DNA of 32,000 bases from Megasphaera elsdenii DSM 20460 (GTDB taxonomy: Bacteria > Bacillota > Negativicutes > Veillonellales > Megasphaeraceae). The notes beneath the pieces are model-generated. The model had not been told where the DNA came from. It searched no databases and worked only from the letters and a program-made list of their open reading frames with translations. The position numbers were made by a program, and so were the translations under genes. Location: contig NZ_CP027570.1 in NCBI RefSeq assembly GCF_003010495.1, forward strand, positions 1 to 32,000. The letters are read 5' to 3'. Shown piece by piece: positions 7,845 to 32,000 of this stretch (positions are counted from its first letter, which is position 1; each line of letters begins with the position of its first letter).

Positions 7845-7975
7845 AAAAAAGCTTGCCTCATGTGCGACAAGCTTTTTAAGTGGTTAGTGGCTAGTGGTTA
7901 GCAGATGGCTTTAAATATAAAAACCATTACCTCAAACATAGGAGAAAGGGACCTTGCATGATGTTCGCTAATTTC
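7845..7975. repeat. Composite palindromic intergenic element, copy E1 (hairpin - heptad arm - GGATGG/TTTAAAT core - AC arm - half hairpin)
   Basis: An A-run plus hairpin gcttgcctcatgtgcgacaagc plus T-run lies at 7845-7880. Heptads gtggtta gtggcta gtggtta follow, then the core gcagatggctttaaatat at 7901-7918, the AC-rich arm cctcaaacata, and a half hairpin aaagggaccttgcatgatgttcgc that abuts the activator stop codon at 7979. On the minus strand the 7845-7880 hairpin is followed by TTTTTT, so it is the likely terminator of the activator gene. Confidence 0.75.
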
Positions 7976-9915: not shown

Positions 9916-11040
9916 TCAGCGGACGCAGACGAGTTCGTATTCCCGTGTGCCTAAGCCGATTTTTTCAGCGTGTTCCAGTGTCGTCTTCCAATCGACGTTG
10001 GGGTTACTGTCGAGGAAGTGGTCATGATGATGGTGCCAATCAGGTTTGGCCAGGTTATCCGACAACTGGCTGTTGGGCATAGGCGCTGCTTTCATGCAGG
10101 CATCGGCACAGGCCTGATCGAGAGCAACCGGGTCAAAGGAAGCGAACATGCCGATGTCTGGCAGGATAGGCGCATCATTTTCAGCATGGCAGTCGCAATT
10201 CGGCGAAACGTCCATGACCAGATTGATGTGGAAGCATGGGCGATCCTGGCAGACAGCCTGGGCGTATTCGGCCATCTTGCGGTCCAGTTTTTCATTGGCA
10301 TCCCATTCGACGGTTTCAATGGCGTCGAAGGCACAGGCGCCGATGCAGCGGCCGCAGCCTTTGCACAGGTCTTCGTGGATATGGGCGACGTTATTTTCAT
10401 AGGTAATGGCGTCAGAACCGCATTCCTGCGCGCAGCGATGACAGTTCTTGCACTTGCTTTCGTCGACTTTCGGTTTGCCCGACGAATGTTGTTCCATCTT
10501 GCCGGCACGGCTGCCGCAGCCCATGCCGATATTCTTAATGGCGCCGCCAAAGCCCGTCATTTCGTGGCCTTTGAAGTGAGCCAGGCTGATGAAGACGTCC
10601 GCATCCATAATGGCCCGGCCGATTTTCGCTTTTTCAACGTATTCACCATTCTTAACGGGCACTTCTACTTCATCGGTGCCACGCAAGCCGTCGCCGATGA
10701 TAATCTGACAGCCTGTCGTGACCGTGTTATAGCCATTGAGGTTGGCACAGTCCAAGTGTTCCAGTGCGTGCTTACGGCTGCCCGGATACAGCGTATTGCA
10801 ATCCGTCAAAAACGGGCGGCCGCCCAATTCCTTAACCAAATCGGCAACAGCCTTGACATACTGCGGCCGCAGCGAAGCCAGACAGCCCAGTTCGCCGAAG
10901 TGCATCTTGATGGCGACAAATTTCCCTTCAAAATTGATTCTTTCAATGCCTGCTTTTTTGCAGAGCTTCTGCAGTTTCTGCAGGTTGTTCTTGCCCGGCC
11001 GGCAGCGGAAATCCGTAAAATATACCTTCGCTTTTTCCAT
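9916..11040 (-). CDS. DUF362-family protein with inserted 2x[4Fe-4S] ferredoxin domain
   Basis: The 374-aa ORF starts MEKAKVYFTDFRC. It has two CxxCxxCxxxC motifs (CKNCHRCAQEC, CKGCGRCIGAC). An AGGAGGG SD lies 7 nt upstream of the ATG. Confidence 0.82.
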   Translation of the reverse strand: MEKAKVYFTDFRCRPGKNNLQKLQKLCKKAGIERINFEGKFVAIKMHFGELGCLASLRPQYVKAVADLVKELGGRPFLTDCNTLYPGSRKHALEHLDCANLNGYNTVTTGCQIIIGDGLRGTDEVEVPVKNGEYVEKAKIGRAIMDADVFISLAHFKGHEMTGFGGAIKNIGMGCGSRAGKMEQHSSGKPKVDESKCKNCHRCAQECGSDAITYENNVAHIHEDLCKGCGRCIGACAFDAIETVEWDANEKLDRKMAEYAQAVCQDRPCFHINLVMDVSPNCDCHAENDAPILPDIGMFASFDPVALDQACADACMKAAPMPNSQLSDNLAKPDWHHHHDHFLDSNPNVDWKTTLEHAEKIGLGTREYELVCVR

Positions 11041-11070
11041 GAGTATTCCCTCCTAAAACCAGTTATCTTC

Positions 11071-11101
11071 ATTGTACCACCTGAAGTACGCTCTAAGTCA
11101 A
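11071..11101 (-). promoter_or_regulatory. Candidate extended -10 promoter of the DUF362 gene
   Basis: The reverse strand reads TTGACT-N19-TACAAT, with TGG immediately before the -10 (TGnTACAAT). The 19-nt spacer is long, so the call rests on the extended -10. Confidence 0.35.
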
Positions 11102-11147
11102 CTATTTACTTATAACCGAGATGTAAAAAATCGATATGCAAAAAAAC

Positions 11148-11191: not shown

Positions 11192-11280
11192 GGAGCGGTA
11201 TCGAAGTGGTCATAACGGGGCTGACTCGAAATCAGTTAGGCCGAAAGGTCTCGTGGGTTCGAATCCCACCCGCTCCGCCA
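11192..11280 (+). tRNA. tRNA-Ser (anticodon CGA), CCA encoded
   Basis: The acceptor stem GGAGCGG pairs with CCGCTCC. The anticodon arm is GCTGA-CTCGAAA-TCAGT, giving anticodon CGA. There is a long variable arm (TAGGCCGAAAGGTCTC), a T arm GTGGG-TTCGAAT-CCCAC, discriminator G and CCA. Length is 89 nt, typical of class II Ser tRNAs. Confidence 0.95.
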
Positions 11281-11285
11281 AATCG

Positions 11286-11331
11286 AAAGCGCACTGATAA
11301 GCCATTCATGGAACTTATCAGTGCGCTTTTT
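11286..11331. terminator. Bidirectional terminator shared by tRNA-Ser and the convergent doc gene
   Basis: The 14-bp stem agcgcactgataag (11288-11301) pairs with cttatcagtgcgct (11314-11327). It is flanked by AAA on the left and TTTTT on the right. The doc stop codon is at 11332-11334. Confidence 0.8.
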
Positions 11332-11736
11332 CTATGTTTCCATTTTCTTATGTTTCAATAACCATTGTTTGATTCCATCACTATCCAAATTATCAGCAGC
11401 AACATCAACCACCATATCTTCTAATTCTTGTTGTGTATAATCTAAATCAATCCCATTGATATAAAGAAATACCAACATGCTATGAATAGCAGAGCGTTTA
11501 TTACCATCGCGAAATGGGTGATTTTTTGTAAGGCCATAACATAATCTAGCTGCTTTATCTAAAATAGTAGGATAAAGTTCTTCCCCAGCAAATGACTGAA
11601 ACGGAGTACTTACGGCAGATTCCAGCAAATTCATATCATGAATGCCTTTATCCATAACATATCTCTGCTCCATCTCTTCATGAAAAGCAAGTACATCTTC
11701 TAGGATAATTTCTATCAATATTTGCTCGTGTTTCAT
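11332..11736 (-). CDS. doc: Doc (death-on-curing) family Fic-fold toxin
   Basis: The 134-aa ORF carries HPFRDGNKRSA, matching the Doc signature HxFx(D/N)(A/G)NKR. It overlaps the upstream small ORF by 4 nt (ATGA). Confidence 0.88.
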   Translation of the reverse strand: MKHEQILIEIILEDVLAFHEEMEQRYVMDKGIHDMNLLESAVSTPFQSFAGEELYPTILDKAARLCYGLTKNHPFRDGNKRSAIHSMLVFLYINGIDLDYTQQELEDMVVDVAADNLDSDGIKQWLLKHKKMET

Positions 11737-11891
11737 CGATTTTCTAAGTCCCTATAGGCTTTTTCATTGCGTTGAAACATGAGCTGAGAGGCCTTACGGA
11801 TTTTTTCTTTTATTTCTTGATTTCCTTTGCTGGTAAGAATTTTTCTTTCAACAGGTACCTTGATTACTTTGGCAGAATCAGATAAATTCAT
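11733..11891 (-). CDS. Putative antitoxin of the Doc module (52 aa)
   Basis: MNLSDSAKVIKVPVERKILTSKGNQEIKEKIRKASQLMFQRNEKAYRDLENR. The ATG at 11891 lies 9 nt after a perfect AAGGAG (11906-11901). The longer tracked start at 11987 has no SD. The 4-nt overlap with doc is typical of type II TA operons. The family could not be assigned by eye. Confidence 0.55.
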   Translation of the reverse strand: MNLSDSAKVIKVPVERKILTSKGNQEIKEKIRKASQLMFQRNEKAYRDLENR

Positions 11892-11992
11892 GACATTCAT
11901 CTCCTTACATACATTCTTACTCACTATAGGTGATATTAACTTATTATAAATAAGTATATCACACCTTGTAAAGTATTTACTACGCAAGCATC

Positions 11993-12171
11993 AAAAAGGC
12001 GCTGTCGCACGAAGACAGCGCCTTTTGGAGTTTGAAGTTGAAAGTTTGATGTTTGATGTGGATGGTTTTAAATTTAAAGCAATCGCCTCAAACATCATAC
12101 ATCAAACCTCAAACATTAAAGAGAAAGGGGCCTCGCATGATGGCAGAAACCTTCGTGCGACAGCCCCTTTT
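11993..12171. repeat. Composite palindromic intergenic element, copy E2 (two terminator hairpins flanking heptad arms and core)
   Basis: The left hairpin is ggcgctgtc-gcacgaa-gacagcgcc (11998-12022) with A5/T4 flanks. The left arm is tttgaag ttgaaag tttgatg tttgatg. The core gtggatggttttaaatttaaag lies at 12058-12079. The right arm is cctcaaa catcata catcaaa cctcaaa. The right hairpin aaaggggcctcgcatgatggcagaaaccttcgtgcgacagcccctttt lies at 12124-12171. The element is downstream of the typA stop (12212). Confidence 0.8.
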
Positions 12172-12211
12172 TGAATATTAAGTTTGTAAGTTGTAGTTTT
12201 TAGTGAAAAGC

Positions 12212-14026
12212 TTACTGCTGTGCACGACGCATCGCTTTTTTGCGGTCGTGTTTGTCGAGGATGGCTTTGCGGATACGGATGCTCTTCGGCGTAACTTCTA
12301 CGAGTTCGTCGTCGTTGATCCATTCCAGGGATTTTTCCAAGCCCATTTCCTGCGGCGGCGTGAGGCGGAGTGCTTCGTCCGAGGCGGAGGAACGGGTGTT
12401 GGTCAAGTGTTTCTTCTTGCACGGGTTGACATCGATATCGACGTCGCGGTTGCTTTCACCGACGACCTGGCCGAGGTAGATTTCTTCGCCCGGTTTGATG
12501 AACATCGTGCCGCGGTCCTGCAGGTTGAAGATGCCGTAGCCGGTAGTCGTGCCCGATTCAAAGGCAACTAAGCTGCCGCGGGTACGGCCCGGGATTTCGC
12601 CTTTCCAGGGAGCATAGCCGTGGAAGACGTGGTACATGATACCATTCCCTTTGGTAGCTGTGAGAAATTCGCTGCGGAAGCCGATGAGGCCACGGGCCGG
12701 GATGATAAATTCCAGGCGGGTGTAGCCGGAGATATCGGTCATGTTGACCATTTCGGCTTTACGGGTACCGAGTTTTTCCATGACAGCGCCCATAAATTCA
12801 GGCGGAACGTCGATGGTGAGAGCTTCCAGCGGTTCGCATTTCTGGCCGTTGATTTCTTTGGTGATGACGCTCGGTTTACCGATCTGGAGTTCATAACCCT
12901 GACGGCGCATTTCTTCGATGAGGACAGCGATGTGGAGTTCGCCACGGCCCGATACTTTGAAAGCATCGGCGCTGTCTGTTTCTTCGACGCGCAGGGATAC
13001 GTTGGTCTGGACTTCGCGGAACAAGCGGTCGCGGAGATGACGGCTGGTGACGTATTCCCCTTCCTGGCCGGCAAAGGGGCTGTCGTTGACGTAGAAAATC
13101 ATGGACAGCGTCGGTTCGTCGATGTTGATTTTCGGCAGGGCTTCCGGATTCTGCGGGTCCGTAACGGTTTCGCCGATCTTGAGGTCCGGAATACCGACGA
13201 TGCAGGCGATTTCGCCCATAGCGGCTTCATCCTGTTCGACTCGTTTCAAGCCTTCATAGGTATAGACGCGGCCGATTTTGGCTTTGCGCTGGCCTTCGCC
13301 GTCGGTGACGACGACGTTCTGGTTCGGATGCATTTTGCCGCGGACAATACGGCCGATAGCGATTTTACCGACATAATCGTCGTAGTCCAACGTCGTGACC
13401 ATGAACTGCAGCGGGCCTTCGGCATCGCCTTTCGGGCACGGGCAGTATTTGATGATGGTCTTGAACAGCGGTTCGAGATTATCGCTGTCGTCGTCCATGG
13501 AGTATTTAGCAATGCCATCGCGGCCGTTTGCATAGACGACCGGGAAATCGAGCTGTTCGTCTGTCGCATCGAGTTCCATGAACAATTCAAGAACTTCGTC
13601 TTCGACTTCAGCGACGCGGGCACCGGGTTTGTCGATTTTATTGATGACGACGATTGGTTTCAATTTCTGTTCCAAAGCCTTGCGCAAAACGTATTTCGTC
13701 TGCGGCATCGGGCCTTCAAAAGCATCGACGAGGAGCAGTACGCCGTCTACCATGTTCAGTACACGTTCTACTTCGCCGCCGAAGTCAGCATGCCCCGGGG
13801 TGTCGACGATGTTGATCTTGACGCCTTCGTGCATGACAGATGTATTTTTGGACAAGATTGTAATGCCGCGTTCACGTTCAATATCTCCAGAGTCCATGAC
13901 ACGTTCTTCTACTTTTTCGTTAGAACGGAAAACATGGCTCTGTTTGAGCATGGCGTCGACCAGTGTCGTTTTGCCATGGTCAACGTGGGCAATAATTGCA
14001 ATATTACGAATATCTTTGCGTTCCAT
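12212..14026 (-). CDS. typA: Translational GTPase TypA/BipA
   Basis: The 604-aa ORF has G1 [10 protein letters not shown]3 DTPGHADF and G4 NKID. It is collinear with EF-G-like domains. A GAGAGAGAGGA SD precedes the ATG. Confidence 0.96.
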
Positions 14027-14076
14027 CTAATGTCCTCTCTCTCATTAACAAATATTAGATTGTATGTAACTAGATT

Positions 14077-14105
14077 AGTATAGCATGGATTGCGCAGAAA
14101 TGCAA
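14077..14105 (-). promoter_or_regulatory. Candidate sigma-70 promoter of typA
   Basis: The reverse strand reads TTGCAT (14105-14100), 17-nt spacer, TATACT (14082-14077). Confidence 0.5.
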
Positions 14106-16124: not shown

Positions 16125-16194
16125 AAAAGGAACTGTCACAGGTGCGACAGTTCCTTTTAAGGGGTTAGTGGCTAGCGGATGGATTTAAATTTTA
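16125..16194. repeat. Composite element, truncated copy E3; also the murB terminator
   Basis: The hairpin is aaaaggaactgtcacaggtgcgacagttcctttt (16125-16158). Heptads ggggtta gtggcta follow, then the core gcggatggatttaaatttta (16175-16194). The murB stop codon (16194-16192) lies inside the core-homologous segment, and there is no right arm. Confidence 0.75.
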
Positions 16195-20241: not shown

Positions 20242-20601
20242 TTGATCATAGCCGAAGACGCGCCTATTCGCGTACTCATCCGCAACCATTTAGATTTCAA
20301 AGGCAAGGTCAGCCGTAAACGCTACCTGCACTTCCGCCTGTTCAGTATCCTGCCCATCTGCCTCATCATCTGGCTCCAGCACCTGGCCTCGCAAGGCGGC
20401 CCGGCGGCCCTGGAATACACCATCGCCTCGTGCCTCATCGCCATCCTCCTCATCCCTGTCGACTTCTCCTATATGATACGCCGCTACCATGACCTGGGGA
20501 AATCCGGCTGGTACTGTATCATCAACGTCCTGGCCCGAAACATCTGGTTCGCCGCCCTGGCCGTCGAAATTTTCCTCTGCTGGAAAGAGAAAATAGAGTA
20601 A
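20242..20601 (+). CDS. DUF805-family inner-membrane protein
   Basis: The ORF has F-x-G-x-x-SRKRY near the N-terminus, hydrophobic segments and RRYHDLGKSGWY, the DUF805 signature. The start is a TTG 8 nt after an AAGGAGG SD. Confidence 0.78.
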   Translation: MIIAEDAPIRVLIRNHLDFKGKVSRKRYLHFRLFSILPICLIIWLQHLASQGGPAALEYTIASCLIAILLIPVDFSYMIRRYHDLGKSGWYCIINVLARNIWFAALAVEIFLCWKEKIE

Positions 20602-20930
20602 GGGGCTGATGGCCCCGCAGACCGCAGTTCGCAGGCCGCCTCGGATTCAAATGCCGCTGCGCGGTAACAGATTCAAATTGACGACATCGCCTCGAGTAAC
20701 CCTCGGCTCGTGAAAAAAATCGTGGCTCGTGGTTCGTGGTTCGTGGCTCGTAAAAGCCCGCCACTATACTCGAAAAGGCTGTGATGAAATCTCGCAACGG
20801 GCCGCACAAGGCTCCCTTTATAGGGGAGCTGGCCGCCAAAGGCGGTCTGAGAGGTTAAAGGTCGTCCCGCCGTGAATCCTGGGCACAGCCGGAATTTATG
20901 ACGAGTGGCACGCGGTCGTAATACCAAAAT
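20602..20930. repeat. Mosaic of small GC-rich hairpin modules and GTGGYTC heptads (non-coding)
   Basis: It contains gtggctc gtggttc gtggttc gtggctc (20724-20751), the conserved block starting GGCTGTGATGAAATCTC (20777), and an inverted copy of the dual-hairpin module (20810-20856). It shares several blocks with 23611-23892. Confidence 0.7.
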
Positions 20931-21113
20931 AAAAAAGGGCTTGTCGCACGACGACAAGCCCTTTAAAGTTGCTAGTGGCTAGCAGTTAGTTGTTAGCGGA
21001 TGGCTTTAAATTTGAAAGTTTTCTCTGCAAACTACAAACTCGGTGCTACAAACTATAACGTAAATGGGGCCTCGCATGACGGAAGAAACCTTCATGCGAC
21101 AGCCCCTTTTTTT
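20931..21113. repeat. Composite palindromic intergenic element, full copy E4, between convergent genes
   Basis: The left hairpin aaaaaagggcttgtcgcacgacgacaagcccttt lies at 20931-20964. Heptads gttgcta gtggcta gcagtta gttgtta follow. The core gcggatggctttaaatttgaa lies at 20996-21016. The AC arm is ctgcaaa ctacaaa ctcggtg ctacaaa ctataac. The right hairpin ggggcctcgcatgacggaagaaaccttcatgcgacagccccttttttt lies at 21066-21113, and its T-run overlaps the deacetylase stop codon. Confidence 0.85.
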
Positions 21114-21966
21114 ACGGCTGCGGGATATGCTGAGCCAGGTCTTTGGTCATTTCTATGTGTTCAAAGTATTTATGGGTCTTCCACAGGAGCGCACTGAAGG
21201 CGCTGAAGGTCAGGCGGAACCGGAAGTGTTTGAAGCTTATAGGGCCTTCAAACATGGGGACGCGGTCCAAGTCGTATGGATCGTCCCAAGGGAAGTCGCG
21301 GCCTGTATCTACGGTGAAGGCGTAGCGGTAGCCGGCGCCTCTCGTTTCTTCCATGACCATATCGTTATATTTGCCTTCCGGGAAGGCGATGAAATGACAG
21401 GGCTTGCCCGTCATTTTTTCGATGATGTCTTTCGAGTCCTGCAGTTCATGACGGACTCCGGCCCGGTCGAAGCTGGTCAGGGGTTTATGACTGATGGTAT
21501 GGGACCCAAATTCCATGCCGTCGGCAGCCATTTCCTTGACCTGGTCCCAGGTCAGGTAGCCCGGCGTATCCATGAGGTTGATGATCAGGAATATCGTGCC
21601 GCGCATGTTATATTTCTTCAGGATGGGATAGGCTTCTTCGTAATTGTCGACGTAGCCGTCATCAAAGGTGATGAGGACCGGCCGGTCCGGCAAATCGCCT
21701 TCGCCGCGCATGTAGGCATCGAATTGTTCCAAGGTAATGGAATGATAGTCGTTGTCGTGCAGATATTTCATCTGTTCGTCAAAATTAGCTGGCTTCATGG
21801 TCAGCACGGTATTGAATTTATTATTGACCTGATGATAATTCAGGACCGGGACGCCTGTCAGGTGATAGTTCGTCGACCCGAAATACCAAAAAGCAAAGAT
21901 ACCGATGAGGAGGACCAGGACGGTAAGGATGACGCCGATGATCCACGAGCATATTTTTTTCACCAT
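21112..21966 (-). CDS. Polysaccharide deacetylase (NodB homology domain) with N-terminal membrane anchor
   Basis: The 284-aa ORF has TFDDGY and GSHTISH NodB motifs and an N-terminal hydrophobic helix. An AAGGAAG SD overlaps the upstream stop codon. Confidence 0.88.
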   Translation of the reverse strand: MVKKICSWIIGVILTVLVLLIGIFAFWYFGSTNYHLTGVPVLNYHQVNNKFNTVLTMKPANFDEQMKYLHDNDYHSITLEQFDAYMRGEGDLPDRPVLITFDDGYVDNYEEAYPILKKYNMRGTIFLIINLMDTPGYLTWDQVKEMAADGMEFGSHTISHKPLTSFDRAGVRHELQDSKDIIEKMTGKPCHFIAFPEGKYNDMVMEETRGAGYRYAFTVDTGRDFPWDDPYDLDRVPMFEGPISFKHFRFRLTFSAFSALLWKTHKYFEHIEMTKDLAQHIPQP

Positions 21967-21976
21967 AAGACTTCCT

Positions 21977-22375
21977 TTATTTTGTTACGTTTTTCAGGGT
22001 CTTGACGAAATGGTTCTCAGTCAGCCATTTTTCATCGCCTTTTTCCAGAGCTTCTTTCAGCTCTTTGATACAGATATTTTCCATATGGATCGTTTCGATG
22101 GTCGTCGTCATGTATTTCGTTTCTTCATACATGTAATCATCCAGTTCCTGTTTGACCAGGACATCTTTCAGTTCAAAGAGCAGGTCTTCCGATTCCTGCT
22201 GGATAGCCAGCAGTTCCGTCCAATGATTGTATTCTTCTTCAGTCAGGACAAATTCACCGTACATATCCGTCACCAGCTGTTCCTGGGAACAGAGAATCTG
22301 TTTGGCATAATCTACTCCCGTAGAGCGGTCATAGACGTGGAGTTCACGGTTTTCTCCATTTACACTAACGCGCAT
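21977..22375 (-). CDS. Hypothetical acidic protein (132 aa)
   Basis: I use the ATG at 22375, 8 nt after a GGAGG SD (the tracked GTG at 22384 overlaps the SD). No motif was recognised. It appears translationally linked to the deacetylase gene 10 nt downstream. Confidence 0.55.
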   Translation of the reverse strand: MRVSVNGENRELHVYDRSTGVDYAKQILCSQEQLVTDMYGEFVLTEEEYNHWTELLAIQQESEDLLFELKDVLVKQELDDYMYEETKYMTTTIETIHMENICIKELKEALEKGDEKWLTENHFVKTLKNVTK

Positions 22376-22462: not shown

Positions 22463-22498
22463 AAAAAAGGACTTGCCGCGTAATGGCAAGTCCTTTTT
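22463..22498 (-). terminator. Rho-independent terminator of the rplU-prp-rpmA operon
   Basis: An A6 run is followed by the stem ggacttgcc (22469-22477) / ggcaagtcc (22485-22493) and a T5 run. On the minus strand it is preceded by the AC-rich heptads aaaacta caaactg aaaacta aaaactc and followed by TTTTTT. Confidence 0.8.
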
Positions 22499-22550
22499 GA
22501 GTTTTTAGTTTTCAGTTTGTAGTTTTTACAAACTTCATGCTATAAGCTAA

Positions 22551-23610: not shown

Positions 23611-23892
23611 GTTTTTTAGTGGCTCGTGGTTCGTGGTTCGTAGGGCCTGGCGGCCCCTACGCATCCTTCCGTTGGTCGGCACTTGACGGGCCCCAAAAGG
23701 CCGCAGCGAATTCTGTGTATAGCCGGAGACTCGACAGATAGCTCGTTGTCCGTGGTGCATAAAAACCTGCCATTATATCAGCATGGGCTGTGATGAAATC
23801 TCCCTAGCGGGCTCGCCACGTGCGAGCCCCTACGCATACGGCCAGGGGCCGTGTATTTTACGAACTGCGTTCATTTCACACAGCCGAGTCCG
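23611..23892. repeat. Mosaic of GC-rich hairpin modules and GTGGYTC heptads (non-coding), paralogous to 20602-20930
   Basis: It contains gtggctc gtggttc gtggttc (23621-23641), the hairpin gtagggcc-tggc-ggcccctac, and the conserved block cgtggt...tatatc...GGCTGTGATGAAATCTC (23751-23802). It also has the hairpins gggctcgc-cacg-tgcgagccc (23809-23829) and acggcc-agg-ggccgt (23838-23852), and the closing segment atttcacacagcc (23873-23885). Confidence 0.7.
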
Positions 23893-24002
23893 AAAAAAAG
23901 GGCTTGTCGCATGACGACAAGCCCTTTAAAGTTGTTAGTAGCTAGCAGTTAGTGGTTAGCGGATGGCTTTAAATTTGAAGTTTTTCTCTGCAAACTATTT
24001 TC
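23893..24002. repeat. Composite element copy E5 (hairpin, heptads, core, short arm); also the amidase terminator
   Basis: The hairpin aaaaaaagggcttgtcgcatgacgacaagcccttt lies at 23893-23927 and is nearly identical to E4. Heptads gttgtta gtagcta gcagtta gtggtta follow. The core gcggatggctttaaatttgaa lies at 23959-23979. The amidase stop is at 24003. On the minus strand the hairpin is followed by T7. Confidence 0.85.
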
Positions 24003-25169
24003 TTAGTTCCCGTTATGGTTGAAGTAATCGGCCAAGCCTTTGACGATGCTTTCAGCGAAGTTCTGCTGCTGGGCGTCGGAGTTGAGGGCTTTTTCTTCAC
24101 TCGGGTTGGAGATGAAGCCCAGTTCCAATAAGGTGGCCGGCATATTGGTGTGCAAGAGGACGTAGAAGTTGGCCGTCTTGACGCCGCGGTCCGGGAAGTT
24201 GGTGGCCTTCATGTTCTGAAGGTGGATGTAGTTGGCCAGGCCGTAATCATAAGGTGTCTTGCTGTTGTAGTAAGCGGTGACACCACCTGCCGACGGGGAA
24301 TCGAAGGAATCGATGTGGATGCAGACGAAGACGTCGGCTTTGGCCGCATTGGCAATGTTGCAGCGGGCCTGCAATTCTTCGACAGCGCCGTCATAAGGCG
24401 CATAGACGTCGACGTCGGTCGTGCGGGTCATGATGACATTGGCTCCGGCAGCACTCAATAAGGAAGCGACTTTCTTGGAAATGGCCAAGGTAATGTCTTT
24501 TTCCTTGGAATAGGCGCCGACAGCACCGGAGTCTGAACCGCCGTGGCCGGGGTCGATGGCGATGGTCTTGCCCTGGAGGCCCTTGGTCAGGCTGTAAGTC
24601 TTGCTGCTGCTATAGGCCGGGACATTGGCAGCCGGCTGTTTGGTGGCCGACGGTTTCCAGCTCTGAGTCGGCTTGGTCGCCCCTTTGATGCCGATATTGG
24701 TATCGCCCCAATGGCTCCACTGTTTGAGCTTGCCCGACTTATCGTTGATGTCGATGACGACGCGGCTCGACGCTTTGCTGTTGGTAGCGCCCGGCAAGGT
24801 AAAGACTTTGACGTCATTCTTGGTGACGGCCCGGGGAACCTTGATGGTCACGTCCGTACTCGACGAACGGGGCGATAAGGTGACGCGGGAAATGACGTTG
24901 CTGTTGGGCTTATAGCTCTTGGCCACGTTCTTGCCTACGCCGGTATTGGGCAAAGTAACGAAAACGTACTCACCGGAGTTGTCGATGTACAGCTTGGGAT
25001 TGACCTTGCCGTTGACATCGAGGACGGTCCGGACGAAAGGTGTATTGGCATCCGTCCGCGTAGCCGTACGCACATTGGTGATTTCCGGTTTGGAAGCTGC
25101 CTGGGCCGATACGAAAGGTATGAGGCACACGAGCAGTAAAAGCGGAAGTATCCATATTTTTTTCAACAC
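24003..25169 (-). CDS. N-acetylmuramoyl-L-alanine amidase (Amidase_3 catalytic domain, N-terminal AMIN-like domain, signal peptide)
   Basis: The catalytic block is TIAIDPGHGGSDSGAVG...LELGFISN. The signal peptide is (M)LKKIWILPLLLLVCLIPFVSAQA. The start is set at the GTG at 25169, 9 nt after an AAGGAG SD. The 39 tracked codons upstream fall in repeat-derived sequence. Confidence 0.88.
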   Translation of the reverse strand: MLKKIWILPLLLLVCLIPFVSAQAASKPEITNVRTATRTDANTPFVRTVLDVNGKVNPKLYIDNSGEYVFVTLPNTGVGKNVAKSYKPNSNVISRVTLSPRSSSTDVTIKVPRAVTKNDVKVFTLPGATNSKASSRVVIDINDKSGKLKQWSHWGDTNIGIKGATKPTQSWKPSATKQPAANVPAYSSSKTYSLTKGLQGKTIAIDPGHGGSDSGAVGAYSKEKDITLAISKKVASLLSAAGANVIMTRTTDVDVYAPYDGAVEELQARCNIANAAKADVFVCIHIDSFDSPSAGGVTAYYNSKTPYDYGLANYIHLQNMKATNFPDRGVKTANFYVLLHTNMPATLLELGFISNPSEEKALNSDAQQQNFAESIVKGLADYFNHNGN

Positions 25170-25212
25170 GCTTATCTTCTCCTTTGCGATCCTAATCTTT
25201 TTCAACTTATTT

Positions 25213-25242
25213 ATTATACAACTAAACCGGCGTAATTGGCAA
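25213..25242 (-). promoter_or_regulatory. Candidate sigma-70 promoter of the amidase gene
   Basis: The reverse strand reads TTGCCA (25242-25237), 18-nt spacer, TATAAT (25218-25213). Confidence 0.5.
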
Positions 25243-25360
25243 TCGTTTTCTGTAGGAGCGACCACGTGGGGCGCCCGTTCACGCAAATTTGGTTCACCAG
25301 TATTTCACATGTACCCGGCGGGCTCGCCACATGCGAGCCCCTACAAAAAACATAATGTAA

Positions 25361-25410
25361 AGCAAAAGGGACCGCCCATGATGACAGATGCCTTCATGAG
25401 ACAGTCCCTA
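25361..25410 (-). terminator. Terminator hairpin downstream of the OmpM-like gene (same hairpin family as the right arms of E2/E4)
   Basis: aaagggaccgcccatgatgacagatgccttcatgagacagtcccta. On the minus strand the stem is followed by TTTTGCTTT. Confidence 0.6.
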
Positions 25411-25430
25411 TAAAACAACTTCTATGAGAC

Positions 25431-25477
25431 AACCTCTCAGACCGCTTTCAGCGGTCAGCTCTCCTATGAGGCGAGCC
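25431..25477. repeat. Dual-hairpin module, copy 3, immediately 3' of the ompM-like stop codon
   Basis: aacctctcagaccgctttcagcggtcagctctcctatgaggcgagcc. The hairpin is gaccgc-tttca-gcggtc, followed by a CTCCTAT...GAG segment. It ends 2 nt before the stop codon at 25480-25482. Confidence 0.7.
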
Positions 25478-25479
25478 TT

Positions 25480-26832
25480 TTAGAACAGGAAGTTGATTTC
25501 TACATCGGTGAATTCGTCAGGGTCAGCGGCATTGCCGTGTTTGGTCTGCGTACCAAAGGTCTGGGCTGCCGTGAGGATGACGTTCTTGGCCAAGGTGTAG
25601 TCGATGCCGACGCCCCAGGATTTGACGTTGTCCAGGACGCTGTCATCACGCCAGGAGTTGGTCGCACCACCGAGGAGAGCGCCTTTATCGGAGTTGAGGT
25701 ATTCAACCCAGGCATCCCAAGAGCCACGAGCGTCACTGTCAGCGGAACCGTAAGTCAGTTTGCCGATCCATACTTCCGGATCTTTCGTATTCCCTGCTTC
25801 GAGGTAGCTATTGTTGCTGTTGATTTTTTCATAGTTAGCCAAAGCGTTCCATTTGCCGAAGTTGACGCTTGCATAAGCACCCCAGAGGTCATCCGCAGCA
25901 AAGCCGTCGCCATACTTTTCGTCACCTTCGCCGCCAGCTACGGTGAAGTCATTATAATAGACGCCGACTGCCGAACCGGCTGCCCGGCCGCCGCCGAAGA
26001 AGCCTTCTAATTCGCCATAGCCGGTCTTGACGCCATCCATGTCATCTGTACCAGCGAGGAGGTCGCCGGCTTTGAATTTACCATAGCCAGCCGTAGCTGC
26101 GAAGTGGTCGTTCGTGTATTTCAATTCAGCCCGGTCAAAGACGTCACCGTACTGGAAGCCGTAGGCGTTTTCACCGCCCAGGACATACGTATCGGTACGG
26201 CCGACGCTGAGGTTCCAGTGGTCGCCGCCGAAGTTGTAGTCGACTTTAGCGTCATCGGTGAAGATGTTTTTGTTGTCGCTCGCTGCGCCATTATCGGCGA
26301 AGCTGATGTCATCCGTGCTGATGCCGTATGTTACGGTCGTGCGGTCGTTGACTTTGGCGTTGGCGCGGACGCGGACGCGGTAATCCCAAGAAGCATCATT
26401 CTTATAGCCAGCTCCGTCGTTGCCGTTCGATTCACCGGAACTCTGGTGCTGGAAGCGGACGCGGGCATCGCCGCTGAGCTTGACGTTGCCTACGCGGTTT
26501 TCCAGGGCGCTGACGCGGACGCCGAGGTTGTTCAGTTCGTCAGCGTATTCGTCAGCCAGTTTGTTGATGAGGGCACGCTGTTCGACGGACGCCTTGTCCA
26601 TGTGAGCCATGGCTTTGGCAACCATTTCAGCGGCTTCATAACGGGTGATGTTGCGGTTGCCCTGGAAATACTGTCCATCGACACCCTGAATGATGCCGGC
26701 GTCAGCCAGTTCGACGACGGATTTGTAAGCCCAGCTGTCAGACGGTACGTCGACAAAGGGATTGGCAGCAAAGGCGCAGGCAGCGCCGACAGCCATCATA
26801 GCGGCTAAGGAGGTAACGATTTTCTTTTTCAT
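25480..26832 (-). CDS. ompM: OmpM-type outer-membrane porin with N-terminal S-layer-homology (SLH) domain
   Basis: The signal peptide is MKKKIVTSLAAMMAVGAACAFA. The SLH block is NPFVDVPSDSWAYKSVVELADAGIIQG...ITRYEAA, followed by a coiled linker. The C-terminal part is Gly/Asp/Tyr-rich beta-barrel-like sequence ending in ...EINFLF. The start is set at the ATG at 26832, not the tracked 26934. Confidence 0.88.
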   Translation of the reverse strand: MKKKIVTSLAAMMAVGAACAFAANPFVDVPSDSWAYKSVVELADAGIIQGVDGQYFQGNRNITRYEAAEMVAKAMAHMDKASVEQRALINKLADEYADELNNLGVRVSALENRVGNVKLSGDARVRFQHQSSGESNGNDGAGYKNDASWDYRVRVRANAKVNDRTTVTYGISTDDISFADNGAASDNKNIFTDDAKVDYNFGGDHWNLSVGRTDTYVLGGENAYGFQYGDVFDRAELKYTNDHFAATAGYGKFKAGDLLAGTDDMDGVKTGYGELEGFFGGGRAAGSAVGVYYNDFTVAGGEGDEKYGDGFAADDLWGAYASVNFGKWNALANYEKINSNNSYLEAGNTKDPEVWIGKLTYGSADSDARGSWDAWVEYLNSDKGALLGGATNSWRDDSVLDNVKSWGVGIDYTLAKNVILTAAQTFGTQTKHGNAADPDEFTDVEINFLF

Positions 26833-26995
26833 CAATATGACCTTCTTTCTCTGTGTATAAGCCTGTGACAGGGAAATCATAAAGGCCTCCCCTATCCGCT
26901 GCGGTCGAGTGTACCTAGTTTCCTCTCGCATCATATAAGGATTCCGCCTATATGGTTCCCTTTGTCACATGGCTTGTTCCAATAAGTACGTAGTT

Positions 26996-27039: not shown

Positions 27040-27073
27040 TAAAAAAAGAGGCTGTCGCATTAAGACAGCCTCT
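27040..27073 (-). terminator. Rho-independent terminator of hydA
   Basis: The 10-bp stem agaggctgtc (27047-27056) pairs with gacagcctct (27064-27073). On the minus strand it is followed by T7. Confidence 0.8.
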
Positions 27074-27108
27074 CCGGCCCTTTGGGCCACCTCCCCTAAC
27101 AAGGGAGG
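27074..27108. repeat. Dual-hairpin module, copy 1, immediately 3' of the hydA stop codon
   Basis: The two hairpins are ggccc-ttt-gggcc (27076-27088) and cctcccct-aaca-agggagg (27090-27108). The hydA stop codon is at 27109-27111. Confidence 0.75.
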
Positions 27109-28563
27109 CTATTCTTCTGTCGGGGGTTTGTACTTCGGCGACATGGGGTTGGTCTGGGGCGTGAGGTTCTTCATGCGGCCCAGCTGGTCGCTCTTGTCGG
27201 AGAAGTAGGTGTGCAAGGTAAATTCGGCCATTTCTGACAGCGGTTCATCGAGGAAAGCTTCGTAGAGTGTTTCGATTTCCGGGTTCTGCCAGCTGGCTTT
27301 GATATCGGTTTCTTCATCGCTCTTATAAATCGATGCCGTGCGGGCTTCCTGGACTTTCTTGACCTGCGGCAGCTTGACTTTCGGCTGACCGCCGCCGCCG
27401 ATGCAGCCACCGGGGCAGGCCATGACTTCGATGAAGGAGTAGTCTTCAAAGGCGTCATTCTTAATGAGGTCGTCGATGAAGGCGCGGGCGTTGCCCAGGC
27501 CGCTGATGGCAGCGACGTGAAGGACGAAGTGGCCGAAGATGACCGTCGCTTTCTTGACGCCCTGGAGACCGCGGACCGGTTCGAAGGGGATGAAGTCCTT
27601 CGGGGCCGGACGGCCTGTGAACATGTGGTATGCCGTGCGGATAGCCGCTTCCATGACACCGCCGGAGTTGCCGAAGATACGGCCGCCGCCGGAGGCTTCG
27701 CCAAAAGCCTTGTCGAACTTGCTATCTTCGAGGCTGGCAAAGTCGATGTTTTCGTCCTGGATCCACTGGGCCAGTTCCCGCGTCGTGATGCAGATATCGG
27801 TATCGCGGATTTCCGGTTCATCCCAGAAGAGGCCGGAAGCGCTCAGTTCAGGACGGCGGATTTCGGCTTTCTTCGCCGTGCACGGCGTAACGCAGACGTT
27901 GACGATTTTCTTGGGGTCGATGTTCTTCTGCTGGGCGAAATAGGTCTTGATGACCGGGCTGAGGATACTGATGGGGCTCTTCGTCGAAGACAGATGCTGG
28001 AGCAGGTCCGGATAGAAGGTTTCCGCAAATTCGACCCATGCCGGGCAGCAGCTGGTGAACTGCGGAATAGGGATTTCTTCCGATTGCAGGCGGTGCAGGA
28101 GTTCCGTCGCTTCTTCCATGATGGTCAGGTCGGCACCGAAATCGGTATCGAAGACATAGTCCGCACCGAGTGTACGCAGGGCTGCGACCATCTTTCCTTC
28201 GACGAACGTACCGGGGTCCATGCCGAAGGCTTCGCCTAAGCCGACGCGGACAGCCGGAGCCGTCTGGAAGATGACGATCTTTTCAGGGTCTTTCAGGGCC
28301 GCCTTGACTTTGTCCACATCGTTGACTTCGACGATGGCACCAAAGGGGCAGGCAGACGAACACTGGCCGCAATGTACGCAGATGGGCATGTCCCCTGTAC
28401 TGGACAGGGAGTAGTAGTCCAACACAGTCTGTGTGTCGGCACAGGCCCGGCGACATAAGGTGCAGTTCTTACACTTCGTTACGTCAAATTGAACGGCACA
28501 GTTGTGTTCATCAATGGGAACACGACGGTCAATTTTTTCAAAACGGGAATGAAATTCAGGCAT
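27109..28563 (-). CDS. hydA: Monomeric [FeFe]-hydrogenase (two accessory 4Fe-4S clusters + H-cluster domain)
   Basis: The 484-aa ORF has two ferredoxin-type motifs (CKNCTLCRRAC, CVHCGQCSSACP). The three H-cluster signatures are FTSCCPAW, TPCTAKKAE and MACPGGCIGGGGQP. An AAGGAG SD lies 9 nt upstream of the ATG. Confidence 0.95.
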   Translation of the reverse strand: MPEFHSRFEKIDRRVPIDEHNCAVQFDVTKCKNCTLCRRACADTQTVLDYYSLSSTGDMPICVHCGQCSSACPFGAIVEVNDVDKVKAALKDPEKIVIFQTAPAVRVGLGEAFGMDPGTFVEGKMVAALRTLGADYVFDTDFGADLTIMEEATELLHRLQSEEIPIPQFTSCCPAWVEFAETFYPDLLQHLSSTKSPISILSPVIKTYFAQQKNIDPKKIVNVCVTPCTAKKAEIRRPELSASGLFWDEPEIRDTDICITTRELAQWIQDENIDFASLEDSKFDKAFGEASGGGRIFGNSGGVMEAAIRTAYHMFTGRPAPKDFIPFEPVRGLQGVKKATVIFGHFVLHVAAISGLGNARAFIDDLIKNDAFEDYSFIEVMACPGGCIGGGGQPKVKLPQVKKVQEARTASIYKSDEETDIKASWQNPEIETLYEAFLDEPLSEMAEFTLHTYFSDKSDQLGRMKNLTPQTNPMSPKYKPPTEE

Positions 28564-28757: not shown

Positions 28758-30623
28758 CTATGCCTTTAAGTCCTCTAATTCACACCATCTTTCTGTCAGC
28801 GCATCGACTTTCTCCTGGGTTTCCTTCTGTTCCGACAGCAGCGACTCCACTTCTTCATAATTGCTCCCCGCCGCGGCAATGGCCGCATTGAGGCCCTTGA
28901 GCATGGCTTCGTAGCGCGGCAGTTCTTCCGTGATGCGCCGCAGTTCTTCTTCCTGCCGCGACGTCAGGCCGGCTTTTGTTTTGGCTGGCGTAATATTCGT
29001 TTTAGTAATAGAAGGTGCAGTGGCCTTTTCACCTTTCTTTTCCTGGTGATGGCTGTATTTTTCCTCCAAGTATTCGCTATAGTCACCATAAAAGCGGTCC
29101 CAGGTCCCCTTTTCTAATGTGAAAAGTTTATCAACCACCCGGTCCAGGAAGTAGCGGTCATGCGATACGACGAGGACCACGCCCTGGAAGGTGTCGAGGT
29201 AGCGTTCGAGGACGGTCAGCGTCGGGATGTCCAGGTCGTTCGTCGGTTCGTCCAGGAGGAGGACGTTGGGCTGGTCCATGAGCAGGCGCAGCAGGTACAG
29301 GCGCCGCCGTTCGCCGCCGCTCAGCTTGGCGATGTAGGTGTACTGCATCTCTTCGGTGAACAGGAACTGGTCCAACAGGCGCGTCGCCGAGATGCGCTGG
29401 CCGAACTGATTGGTCACGAAATGGCCGTGTTCCTGGACGTAATCGATGACCCGCATGCCTTCGTCGAACTGGGGCAGCTGCTGAGTGAAGAAGCCGAAGC
29501 GCACGGTCTGGCCGATGGTGACCGTCCCGGCTGTCGGCGCCAGCTGGCCTGCCAAGACTTTGAGCAGTGTCGACTTGCCGACGCCGTTCTCACCGATGAT
29601 GCCGATGCGGTCATGCTTGACGACGTGATACGTCACGTGCTGGAACAGCGGGCGGGCCGGGTCGTAGCCAAAGGCCATGTCGTCGATGTCGATGATAGTC
29701 TTGCCCAGGCGGACAGACGTATCGAACATTTCCACTTCGCCAATGGGTTTGCCCGCTTCGATGGCGCAGAGCTGTTCATACCGTTCCTTACGGGCCTTCT
29801 GCTTGGTCGACCGGGCCTGGGCGCCGCGCTGGATCCAGGCTTTTTCCCGGCGGATGAGGTTGCGCCGTTTGGCTTCGCTCGCTTCTTCCCGTTCCAGCCG
29901 GGCCTGGCGCTGTTCCAGGTACTGGCCGTAATTGCCGACGTAGGTATAGACGTGGCCCCGGTCGAGTTCGATCATGGAATCGGCGACGCAGTCCAGGAAG
30001 TAGCGGTCATGCGTGCTGAGGAGGATGGCCGCCTTGCTGTCGCGCAGGTATTCTTCCAGCCACAGGATGGTCTTGTCGTCGAGATGGTTCGTCGGTTCGT
30101 CCATGATCAGCAGGTCGCAGGGCATGATCAGGGCCCGGGCCAGGCCCAGGCGTTTGCGCTGGCCGCCGGATAATTCGTCGACGGACTGGGAAAAGTTGGA
30201 AATGCCCAATTTACTGAGAATGATCTTGGCATGGGCTTCCAGTTCCCACGCCTGCTGTTCGTCCATTTCGGCGCTGAGGGCGACGACAGCCGCATCATCA
30301 TCGCGCTGGACCGCTTCTTCGTAGCGCTGGAGGAGCTTCATGACCGGCAGGTCGCCGTCGAGGACGCTTTCCAGGACCGTATGGCCCGCGACGAACTGCG
30401 GTTCCTGCGGCAGGTAATGGATGCGCGCCTTGGGATTGCGCCAGATGTCGCCGCTGTCCGTGTCGGTCAGGCCGGCAATGATTTTCAAGAGTGTCGTCTT
30501 CCCGGCACCGTTGAGGCCGATGAGGCCCAGTTTCTGACCGCCGTCGATGGCAAAGGTCACGTCGTCGAAGAGGACCCGCAGGCCGTAAGATTTCTTTACA
30601 TGTTCTACTGTCAATATATTCAT
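28758..30623 (-). CDS. ABC-F family ATPase (Uup-like, two ABC cassettes + C-terminal coiled coil)
   Basis: The 621-aa ORF has Walker A motifs GLNGAGKTT and GENGVGKST and signatures LSGGQRKRL and LSGGERRRL. It has no transmembrane domain and a Lys/Glu-rich C-terminal tail. Confidence 0.9.
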   Translation of the reverse strand: MNILTVEHVKKSYGLRVLFDDVTFAIDGGQKLGLIGLNGAGKTTLLKIIAGLTDTDSGDIWRNPKARIHYLPQEPQFVAGHTVLESVLDGDLPVMKLLQRYEEAVQRDDDAAVVALSAEMDEQQAWELEAHAKIILSKLGISNFSQSVDELSGGQRKRLGLARALIMPCDLLIMDEPTNHLDDKTILWLEEYLRDSKAAILLSTHDRYFLDCVADSMIELDRGHVYTYVGNYGQYLEQRQARLEREEASEAKRRNLIRREKAWIQRGAQARSTKQKARKERYEQLCAIEAGKPIGEVEMFDTSVRLGKTIIDIDDMAFGYDPARPLFQHVTYHVVKHDRIGIIGENGVGKSTLLKVLAGQLAPTAGTVTIGQTVRFGFFTQQLPQFDEGMRVIDYVQEHGHFVTNQFGQRISATRLLDQFLFTEEMQYTYIAKLSGGERRRLYLLRLLMDQPNVLLLDEPTNDLDIPTLTVLERYLDTFQGVVLVVSHDRYFLDRVVDKLFTLEKGTWDRFYGDYSEYLEEKYSHHQEKKGEKATAPSITKTNITPAKTKAGLTSRQEEELRRITEELPRYEAMLKGLNAAIAAAGSNYEEVESLLSEQKETQEKVDALTERWCELEDLKA

Positions 30624-30707
30624 TATATGCTCTTCACTTTCTCTGTAGATTTGTCTTTACCGTATCACACATCACATCAAACGTCAAACATCAAACCCTA
30701 AGAGCAA

Positions 30708-30750
30708 CCCCTCCGGCCCTCTGGGCCACCTCCCCTATTAAGGGAGGCTT
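30708..30750. repeat. Dual-hairpin module, copy 2, in the divergent ABC-F / ftsH promoter region
   Basis: The hairpins are ggccc-tct-gggcc (30715-30727) and cctcccct-atta-agggagg (30729-30747). It is about 90% identical to copy 1. It is preceded by CATCAAA-type heptads (30668-30697). Confidence 0.75.
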
Positions 30751-30821: not shown

Positions 30822-32000
30822 GTGAAAGAAGTCAAAGAAAAGAAAAAGCCGATTTTATTCTACTATATCGTCGCTTTGGCTGTCATTTTCATATTCAACG
30901 CCATTGCCCGGCCGTACTACGACTCGCAGAGCGTGAAACAGGTCGACTACGGGACGTTCATGAACATGACCGAAGACGAACAGATTGCCGACGTCCAGAT
31001 TGAAGAAAACCAGATTCTCTTCAAGGACAAAGACGGCAAGGAATACCGCACGGGCGTCGTCAACGACCCGCAGCTGACGGAACGACTGCACAAGGCCAAG
31101 GTCTCCTTCAACGAAGTCATTAAGGAAAAGGATTCGCCCTTTACGGACTTCCTCATCGCCTGGATCCTGCCGATCCTGATTTTCTTCGGCATCGGCCACT
31201 ATTTCAACCGCAGGCTCATGAACCGCGGCGGCGGCAATTCGCTCATGTTCGGCGCCAAGAACCAGGTCAAGGTCTACGTCCCGTCGGCTAACGGCATCCA
31301 TTTCGATGACGTCGCCGGTGAAGATGAAGCCAAGGAAAACCTGTCGGAAATTGTCGATTTTCTCCACCATCCCGATAAATACGCCAAAATCGGGGCCAAG
31401 ATGCCCAAAGGCGTCCTCCTCGTCGGCCCGCCGGGCACCGGCAAGACCATGCTGGCCAAAGCCGTCGCTGGCGAAGCCGGTGTACCCTTCTTCCCCATTG
31501 CCGGTTCGGAATTCGTGGAAATGTTCGTCGGCATGGGGGCTTCCAAGGTCCGCGACCTCTTCCAGCAGGCCAAACAGAAAGCGCCGTGCATCATCTTCAT
31601 CGATGAAATCGACGCTATCGGTCAGAAGCGTACAGGCAATGCCATGGGCAACAGCGAACGGGAACAGACGCTGAACCAGCTGCTGACGGAAATGGACGGC
31701 TTCAACGCCGACGACAACGTCGTCATCCTGGCAGCGACGAACCGGCCGGAATCGCTGGACCCGGCCCTGCTGCGGCCAGGCCGTTTCGACCGCCGCGTCC
31801 CTGTCGAACTGCCGGACCTGGCAGGCCGTGAAGCCATCCTCCAGGCCCATGCCAAGAAAGTCGTCCTCGGCGACGACGTCGATTTCCACACCATCGCCCG
31901 CATGGCTGCCGGAGCTTCCGGGGCCGAACTGGCCAATATCGTCAACGAAGCGGCTCTGCGCGCTGTCCGCGACCACCGCGATGCCGTCAGCCAGGCTGAC
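30822..32000 (+). CDS. ftsH: ATP-dependent zinc metalloprotease FtsH, 5' end complete, 3' end runs off the right window edge
   Basis: Absent from the ORF track because it has no stop in the window. The GTG at 30822 is the first start after an in-frame TGA (30813-30815) and lies 11 nt after an AAAGGA SD. Translation gives (M)[22 protein letters not shown]..., Walker A GPPGTGKT, Walker [10 protein letters not shown] and second region of homology [20 protein letters not shown]. The 393 codons are in frame to position 32000. Confidence 0.95.

Follow-up and report, generated by a model that had tools for sequence, protein, structure and literature searches.

A probable mosaic repeat with terminator-like ends in the Megasphaera elsdenii clade

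Introduction

The REP (repetitive extragenic palindrome) and BIME (bacterial interspersed mosaic element) families of enterobacteria, including the REP-spacer-REP units with a central protein-binding motif, are high-copy extragenic palindromes located at the 3' ends of genes. They are mosaics of motifs in which inverted hairpins surround a conserved central segment, they are restricted to particular species, and roles in termination and in the protection of mRNA 3' ends have been proposed for them. In these respects they resemble a repeat family of Megasphaera elsdenii DSM 20460, which is described here from the first 32,000 nucleotides of contig NZ_CP027570.1 (the window), where five copies, E1 to E5, are present. 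When many copies are read side by side, a complete unit of the family is about 181 nucleotides long and forms an imperfect palindrome, in which a hairpin (H1) is followed by a heptad-repeat arm (A1), an AT-rich palindromic centre, a mirrored arm (A2) and a second hairpin (H2). In our study, E1 to E5 are considered, with a probability of about 60%, to be copies of a non-coding, clade-restricted mosaic repeat with terminator-like ends, which spreads and is exchanged by recombination.

The hairpins of the Megasphaera family (the H hairpins) are 25–40 nucleotides long and are extragenic and present in high copy number, as are REPs, which are short palindromes of 20–40 nucleotides. Unlike REP and BIME sequences, they lack the GTAG/CGTC tag (PMC3733652) and carry A-runs and T-runs like those of true intrinsic terminators. 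The spacer between them consists of phased heptad arrays in a unit of about 180 bp, and no IHF-type site was recognised in the element, in both of which it differs from BIMEs. REPINs, which are REP doublets mobilised by RAYT (REP-associated tyrosine transposase) proteins (PMC3116915, PMC3337134), likewise hold two inverted hairpin sequences in one unit, form within-genome populations of near-identical copies and show no target-site duplication. In REPINs the inverted pair replicates as a unit; similarly, H1 and H2 are inverted relatives and the full units were found to be amplified whole. However, the inner spacer of the Megasphaera unit is about 110 nucleotides long, with heptad arrays and a central palindrome, the sampled Megasphaera sequence yielded no RAYT, and the junctions lie inside resident terminators. 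The terminal inverted repeats, the non-coding sequence and a length below about 300 bp are as in miniature inverted-repeat transposable elements (MITEs), whereas the target-site duplication of MITEs was not found.

The Correia elements of Neisseria and the ERIC/IRU, RUP and BOX elements are non-coding imperfect palindromes or modular repeats of 100–200 bp, like the Megasphaera unit. They are co-transcribed with neighbouring genes and are able to form long hairpins; the number of internal modules is variable in BOX, and the Correia elements have TA duplications and an IHF site. To our knowledge, none of these elements has terminator hairpins at its two ends as a framework, and we know of none with 7-nucleotide phased stop-codon arrays. 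Bidirectional Rho-independent terminators likewise contain a GC-rich hairpin between an A-run and a T-run and are enriched between convergent genes. Unlike the Megasphaera family, ordinary terminators do not form composite units of 180 bp and are not near-identical at unrelated loci. The Megasphaera family is a new repeat family of a familiar kind, with some, not all, of the defining features of each known class.

Results

Core motif and anatomy of the unit

The core sequence GATGGNTTTAAAT, with at most one mismatch, was found on the plus strand of the window at 7904, 12061, 16178, 20999 and 23962, and a sixth match was present on the reverse strand, inside E2. The chance expectation was 0.16 (shuffle mean), and none of 100 shuffles gave six matches; the five sites with a common core that the original prediction had named were thus borne out. 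A repeat finder returned the arm plus core as a family with five copies in the window (D9) and the first and second hairpins as two more families (D14 and D7, respectively). The near-identity claimed for E4 and E5 was confirmed, at 94% across 104 nucleotides (family D15). The coordinates given for E1 to E5 and the order of hairpin, arm, core, arm and hairpin were correct; of the claim that all five share one architecture the order stood, whereas E3 and E5 were found to be half elements. The core had been described as a separate box and is instead the half that has been kept better at the centre of a long imperfect palindrome. The RNA folds of E4 (both strands) and E2 (minus strand) contained three hairpins each, with z values of -7.0 to -8.7 against shuffles.

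The H1 module contained an A-run and a hairpin, as in GGGCTTGTCGCACGACGACAAGCCC, and A1 was built from 7-nucleotide repeats such as GTTAGTG and GCTAGCA. The centre reads GCGGATGGyTTTAAATTTrAAG..., followed by A2, which mirrors A1 (CTACAAA and similar), and by H2, which is longer than H1 (GGGGCCTCGCATGA...TCGTGCGACAGCCCC with a T-run). Both hairpins are GC-rich, have the motif CTGTCGCA in common and are flanked by an A-run and a T-run, and H1 and the reverse complement of H2 have the same opening sequence, AAAAAGGG(G)CTGTCGCAyGA. The arms are G/T-rich and contain TAG or TGA on the 5' side of either strand. Across the family, the spacing from one TAG to the next was exactly 7 nucleotides in 326 of about 410 successive cases and 14 nucleotides in 47; the arms of E2 contained TGA heptads in place of TAG. 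The full palindromic centre, GGATGGyTTTAAA/TTTAAArCCATC (in a form longer by one base, GGATGGyTTTAAA/TTTAAArCCATCC), was present in E2 and in several copies elsewhere, and in the commonest subfamily the other half of the centre had drifted. A long hairpin formed between the arms was rejected as a conserved feature, the arms of the commonest subfamily pairing poorly and only those of the E2 type pairing well.

The claim that the element is non-coding was also upheld. The ATG in GGATGG opens a frame through A2 and H2, yet the variable position of the core is a second codon position, and indels of 1 and 7 nucleotides between copies disrupt the frame. An array of stops in three frames that catches ribosomes from the upstream gene likewise found no support as the feature under selection. 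A1 contained stops in all frames in 84% of the copies against 11% of the shuffles, but equally on both strands; the mirrored arm (A2') showed no excess, and the A/C-rich arm in mRNA sense after rpmA and typA was without stops. G-U pairs gave mixed signals on the reading strand in the H1 variants, and those in the centre were accounted for by transitions in the A/C-rich half. All five copies in the window lie 3' of minus-strand genes, and therefore the natural reading strand is taken as the minus strand.

Hairpin variation

The 97 H1 hairpins, all of them extragenic, comprised 61 distinct sequences. At least 10 H1 variants were found to have differing and mutually complementary basal stems with TGTCGCA retained, for example GGGCTTGTCG / CGACAAGCCC, GGAGCTGTCGC / GCGACAGCTCC, GGCGCTGTC / GACAGCGCC, AGAGGCTGTC / GACAGCCTCT and GGGTTTGTCG / CGACAAACCC. 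In the consensus fold of the full copies, three H1 pairs showed compensatory double changes, in 12, 17 and 19 of 46 sequences, and the variable nucleotide (N) of the core covaried with its palindromic partner (C..G in 24 copies and G..C in 12), these counts not being independent events because many copies are related by descent. The hairpin stems are maintained through compensatory changes.

Gene context

Genes were called with a home-made codon-usage caller trained on genes with Pfam hits. For 72 copies a gene was called within 500 nucleotides on each side; of these copies, 28 were found between convergent genes, 42 between tandem genes and 2 between divergent genes, as an indicative count; the background gene pairs were 12% convergent, 75% tandem and 13% divergent (chi-square p = 1e-11). 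Convergent pairs were three-fold enriched around the copies, divergent contexts were depleted, 70 of the 72 copies faced at least one gene 3' end, and no copy was found inside a called gene. In the tandem contexts, the upstream gene was faced by the H2 side 30 times and by the H1 side 12 times (p = 0.008). The features of intrinsic terminators were present, namely a GC-rich hairpin with a U-tract and a location at the 3' ends of transcription units. The consensus terminator scan called H1 of E3, H1 of E4 and a hairpin at 22464, and H2 carried a run of 5–7 T on the plus strand.

Distribution across genomes

The TypA and deacetylase proteins of the window are encoded in identical form in M. elsdenii DSM 20460 (HE576794.1), which identifies the window as M. 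elsdenii. One genome per species was scanned for TAGCRGATGGNTTTAAATWT, which gave at least 120 blocks. Among the matches listed, 98 came from five Megasphaera genomes, those of M. elsdenii, M. intestinihominis, strain WILCCON 0056 and two gut metagenome-assembled genomes (MAGs). The remaining listed matches were singletons in unrelated taxa, which fits the approximately 20 chance matches estimated for such a pattern. In 727 kb of Megasphaera sequence (window included), by estimate a few per cent of the five genomes, 116 cores and 46 full-length copies were found. The genome-wide repeat system proposed in the original prediction was therefore seen to hold, across the genome and in several Megasphaera genomes. 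Its suggested scope, the related Negativicutes, was too wide. The murB neighbourhoods of seven relatives (137 kb; MurB 73–87% identical), which include Caecibacter massiliensis and other Megasphaera, contained no core, no heptad array and no blast match to the consensus, where about 20 copies would be expected at the density of the window. From this absence it follows that the family is confined to the M. elsdenii clade, i.e., to M. elsdenii and its nearest relatives.

The search of Rfam that had been suggested earlier gave no repeat family; at the gathering threshold the window yielded nothing but a tRNA. A permissive search with E4 and its flanks (20600–21200) gave a best bit score of 19.9 against a gathering score of 60, and a best E-value of 0.59. 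No published description of this repeat family was found in the literature searched, and the earlier statement that the family is undescribed agrees with both results.

Remodelling between copies and strains

Two subfamilies, of 7 and 6 copies with at least 96% identity, were found at unrelated loci. Strain WILCCON 0056 holds 6 and 5 of these copies, respectively, and one copy of each cluster comes from another genome. Comparison of 19 orthologous site pairs between genomes showed that 12 were remodelled by large indels or replacement, with flanks 87–98% identical, and that the other 7 were 85–100% identical. In M. intestinihominis (L046) a plain terminator, AAAAAGGCGCTGTC...GACAGCGCCTTTTT, occupies the place of a complete element in WILCCON 0056 (L060); one half-stem was kept, the remainder was replaced and nothing was duplicated. 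The Ppx site of three genomes contained in each a full element of a different subfamily. The outermost bases of near-identical copies matched the differing resident hairpin variants, and the junctions were located inside the CTGTCGCA motif of resident H-type terminator hairpins, without target-site duplication.

The same was seen between strains of M. elsdenii, where ten contigs encoding an identical deacetylase protein showed three states directly after the stop codon. E4 was present in 5 contigs, and E4 with another inner arm/centre cassette in 1 contig; the other 4 contigs had a plain H-type hairpin, AGAGCTGTCGCAATCGCGGCAACTCT, and beyond it a different downstream region. Two of the E4 alleles begin with the half-stem of the plain terminator, AGAGCTGTCGCA, which does not pair with the GCCCC of the element. 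Allelism of the same kind was found downstream of typA among M. elsdenii strains, and the heptad number shifted by 7 or 14 nucleotides between strains and species. The copies were shown to be homogenised within genomes and swapped between alleles. The comparison of strains proposed in the original prediction thus revealed presence/absence polymorphism, and no target-site duplication was present at the two sites where a filled allele could be compared with a plain terminator, in agreement with what had been noted there.

The region downstream of typA and E2 (11300–11990 of the window; loci L121–L126) varied between M. elsdenii strains, with a terminator hairpin as the break point. It contained a Fic toxin pair in the window, IS1595 and an aminoglycoside nucleotidyltransferase in L121, and Bro-N phage genes in L122 and L124. 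Copies of the element were found at the extreme ends of draft contigs at many loci (e.g., L003, L007, L010, L021, L032, L039 and L077), and the repeat therefore breaks short-read assemblies of the clade. In L095, a 3.5-kb insertion beside one copy was an ABC transporter operon and not a transposase.

Discussion

Proposed mode of action and spread

In the explanation that we favour, the flanking genes would have their Rho-independent terminators in the hairpins at the ends of the element. Whichever side a transcript comes from, it would meet two serial hairpins and would extend no further than the distal one, where a long U-tract lies on the strand of that transcript, and the element would therefore insulate the neighbouring genes in both directions. 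Spread and exchange would take place by recombination or gene conversion, for which the conserved hairpin and arm sequences may serve as short homology. Plain terminators would be converted to full elements and back, and the arms and the centre would be passengers. The chimeric junctions and the missing target-site duplication point to such a recombination mechanism. Three functions had been offered originally, a terminator cassette, a binding site for a protein and a mobile element; the evidence favours a terminator joined with a recombining or mobile repeat, and the binding site is hypothetical.

Several points weigh against this explanation. An enzyme-driven insertion targeted to hairpins would leave similar junctions. 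The arms and the centre are given no role, yet the strict 7-nucleotide phase of TAG and the covarying central pair may signal a function beyond termination, and the arm and centre of E1 are about 95% conserved beside a gene region with 78% identity. At the same sites a plain terminator is evidently enough, so that the element is dispensable for termination. The termination ascribed to H1 and H2 is deduced from sequence and position only. Moreover, the compared loci were picked for containing the core, which biases the counts and the apparent conservation of the core, and the gene-context counts are indicative only, since they come from core-selected loci and a home-made gene caller.

Alternative explanations

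An enzyme of the kind just mentioned could be a RAYT (a Y1/HUH transposase), which would recognise the inverted hairpins as single-stranded DNA and move a REPIN-like element without target-site duplication. This we regard as unlikely, although it has more in its favour than any other alternative. The two inverted hairpins, the extragenic location, the clade-specific bursts, the missing target-site duplication and the junctions at or within hairpins are all as expected of it. The A2 arms are TTTGTAG arrays, i.e., repeated GTAG, and a GTAG tag is a hallmark of REP families (PMC3733652). The same genome also contained REP-like palindromes tagged with GTAG (GTAGGGGCTCGCAyGTGGCGAGCCC); the window has 3 of them, at 23833, 25344 and 23660 on the minus strand, and a further 62 lie in 695 kb of related loci. 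Arrays of CCACGAA / CCACTAG heptads, which resemble the arms of the main element, often come after these palindromes. The H hairpins themselves, however, have an A-run beside the stem and no GTAG or CGTC tag, their T-runs are typical of terminators, and the position of the junction within the hairpin differs between copies. A tblastn search with three Y1_Tnp proteins gave no homologue in the 727 kb, which is weak evidence as the sample covers an estimated few per cent of the five genomes. Outside the clade, a gene for a 161-amino-acid Y1_Tnp protein (IS200/RAYT-like) was seen beside a 1.7-kb gene-free stretch at 10166–10651 of L127, which belongs to a distant Megasphaera-like MAG without the repeat family. 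A MITE of the classical cut-and-paste type, with an insertion sequence as its source and the DDE transposase of that sequence acting in trans, is improbable. The inverted similarity of the termini (H1 against the reverse complement of H2), the length of about 180 bp, the non-coding sequence and the near-identical copies at unrelated loci agree with it; but no target-site duplication was found in the L060/L046 comparison or among the deacetylase alleles, the resident hairpin was partly replaced rather than flanked, the ends were chimeric with resident hairpin variants, and no gene bracketed by matching left and right halves, as would suggest a parent insertion sequence, was found in the 727 kb.

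The remaining alternatives assign a function to parts of the element. The heptad arms (NAG every 7 nucleotides on the 5' arm of either strand) and the centre may bind an oligomeric protein, which would tune read-through at many gene ends, either as UAG-phased RNA (HutP/TRAP-like) or as 7-bp DNA iterons with a palindrome (ribbon-helix-helix or nucleoid proteins). HutP sites consist of (UAG-N4)x3, and omega-type repressors bind arrays of 7-bp heptads. The exact spacing of TAG by 7 nucleotides (326 of about 410 cases) gives at least three UAG at 4-nucleotide gaps, as in HutP sites, as a pattern match only; the palindromic centre has half-sites about 20 bp apart, its central pair covaries, and the H1-A1-core segment of E1 is more conserved than the adjacent gene. 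Such a binding platform is nevertheless doubtful to a high degree, since the E2-type arms carry TGA or other heptads without UAG, the number of heptads is free to vary, also from strain to strain, the right half-site has been lost in the most successful subfamily, alleles with a plain terminator exist, the family is missing from close relatives, and no candidate protein was identified. In Neisseria and Haemophilus, DNA-uptake signals are carried in terminators, and CTGTCGCA in the stems could be a signal of this type within terminators, with the rest of the element incidental. YTGTCGCA was found 10 times in the window against 2.5 expected, 8 of the 10 being in intergenic hairpins and in both orientations, and strain-variable regions break exactly at the CTGTCGCA hairpins; a link between uptake signals and terminators is also on record (Kingsford 2007, as cited in PMC12306157). 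Within the genes of the window, on the other hand, YTGTCGCA was at chance level (2 matches) and the excess was confined to the repeat hairpins, and an uptake signal leaves the arms and the centre without explanation, which makes it very improbable. We give just as little credence to independent small-RNA genes or cis-regulatory RNAs with their own promoter. The strong RNA fold ending in a terminator would suit them, but no sigma-70-like promoter site was found in any copy, for which reason this explanation was rejected as the principal one; in addition, no Rfam family matched, the copies start at or a few nucleotides from stop codons, and the element is structurally unstable between strains.

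Significance

With this family, M. elsdenii, which lives in the rumen and gut and serves as a probiotic and as a production strain, gains a repeat that can be named and tested. The elements are markers of operon ends and can be of use in annotation, in the typing of strains and in work on genome plasticity, and they are located at the exact break points of strain-variable regions, one of which contains IS1595 and an aminoglycoside-resistance gene. If terminators are swapped as cassettes via short conserved hairpin homology, as we propose, the family would be a clean natural case of it. The strict phasing of stop codons at 7 nucleotides would be a novelty among interspersed repeats of bacteria if it has a function, and a binding platform, if true, would make the copies a dispersed clade-specific regulon of termination or 3' untranslated regions instead of passive repeats.

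Copies and modules in the window

The H1 of E4 (AAAAAAGGGCTTGTCGCACGACGACAAGCCCTTT) was located at 20931–20964 and is followed by TTTTTTATTTT on the minus strand; it is a predicted minus-strand terminator with 14 pairs and, from its sequence, is the likely distal terminator of the polysaccharide deacetylase gene (21112–21966, minus). A1 (20965–20995) contained the heptads GCTAGTG, GCTAGCA, GTTAGTT and GTTAGCG, with TAG every 7 nucleotides. The centre, or core (GCGGATGGCTTTAAATTTGAA), at 20996–21016 forms the left side of the central palindrome, whose right side is degenerate in the subfamily of E4. A2 (21017–21059) contained A/C-rich heptads (CTACAAA and similar) and mirrors A1. H2 (GGGGCCTCGCATGA...TCATGCGACAGCCCC, then TTTTTTT) at 21060–21113 on the plus strand belongs to family D7, and its T-run overlaps the TAA stop (21112–21114) of the deacetylase gene.

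E5 (23893–24002, minus) is a half element with H1, A1, a core at 23959–23979 and a stub of A2, which lies 3 nucleotides from the stop codon of an N-acetylmuramoyl-L-alanine amidase gene (24003–25286, minus); its orthologue in M. intestinihominis (L003) was full-length. E2 (11993–12172, minus), downstream of typA/bipA, is a full element of a second subfamily with the near-full palindromic centre GGATGGTTTTAAATTTAAAGCAATCG. Between E2 and the typA stop (12212–12214) an extra heptad arm was found at 12173–12211 (minus), A/C-rich on the mRNA strand, which was also kept in M. elsdenii strains with only a plain terminator after typA. E1 (7845–7975, minus) contained H1 (7845–7877), A1, a core (7901–7918), A2 and a decayed H2, downstream of a sigma-54 activator gene (7979–9481, minus). 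The H1-A1-core segment of its orthologue L107 was about 95% identical, against 78% for the gene region. E3 (16125–16194, minus) is a half element with H1 (16125–16159), which is a predicted minus-strand terminator with 16 pairs, a short A1 and a core that abuts the murB stop codon (16192–16194).

A core-less unit at 22463–22550 (minus), directly after the stop codon of rpmA (L27; 22551–22895, minus), contained an A/C-rich heptad arm followed by an H-type terminator, which is the hairpin called at 22464 by the consensus scan; this simpler unit of arm and H-type terminator also occurs between the typA stop and E2 (12173–12211). Two modules were found beyond those listed earlier, a solo H2-type hairpin at 25351–25413 (minus; D7, 71%), downstream of an SLH-domain gene (25480–26934, minus), and a solo H-type hairpin (AAAAAAAGAGGCTGTCGCATTAAGACAGCCTCT; D14) at 27040–27075, between a hydrogenase gene and the SLH gene. 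At 30660–30700 only an A/C-rich heptad tract (CATCAAACGTCAAACATCAAAC) was present, a weak relative of the E2-type arm (E = 0.017). It lies between divergent genes (28758–30623, minus; 30822–32000, plus), so that the statement that every copy sits at a gene 3' end was correct for E1 to E5, all 3' of minus-strand genes, and not for this partial copy.

Other observations in the window

A third hairpin family (GCTCCCyT..RGGGAGC or CCTCCCCTA..AAGGGAGG beside GGCC....GGCC) was present at 20811–20860, 25420–25475, 27075–27120 and 30700–30750, in the same intergenic regions as the main repeat, and recurred in related genomes. The 17-mer CAGCCGGAATTTATGAC was common to 20886–20902 of the window and 4210–4230 of L095, beside GC-rich hairpins; its neighbour in L095 is an operon for an ABC transporter of the vitamin/iron type. 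The 17-mer could belong to an unrecognised leader or to another repeat module.

Open reading frames of 313–487 amino acids at 12620–14083, 9970–11115 and 21064–22005 (all plus) are antisense to real genes and were rejected as genes, as their codon usage scored as non-coding; they are artefacts of codon bias. A tRNA-Ser gene (anticodon CGA) at 11192–11280 (plus) was the sole Rfam/ARAGORN match in the window and lies on the strand opposite to most genes. One open frame was found to occupy 1–7653 (minus); it is longer than 2551 codons, runs off the window and contains tandem repeats of 855 nucleotides, four of them 100% identical and a fifth 80% identical. Its product is probably a giant adhesin-type surface protein, and YadA/ESPR/SLH proteins were found at comparable places in relatives.

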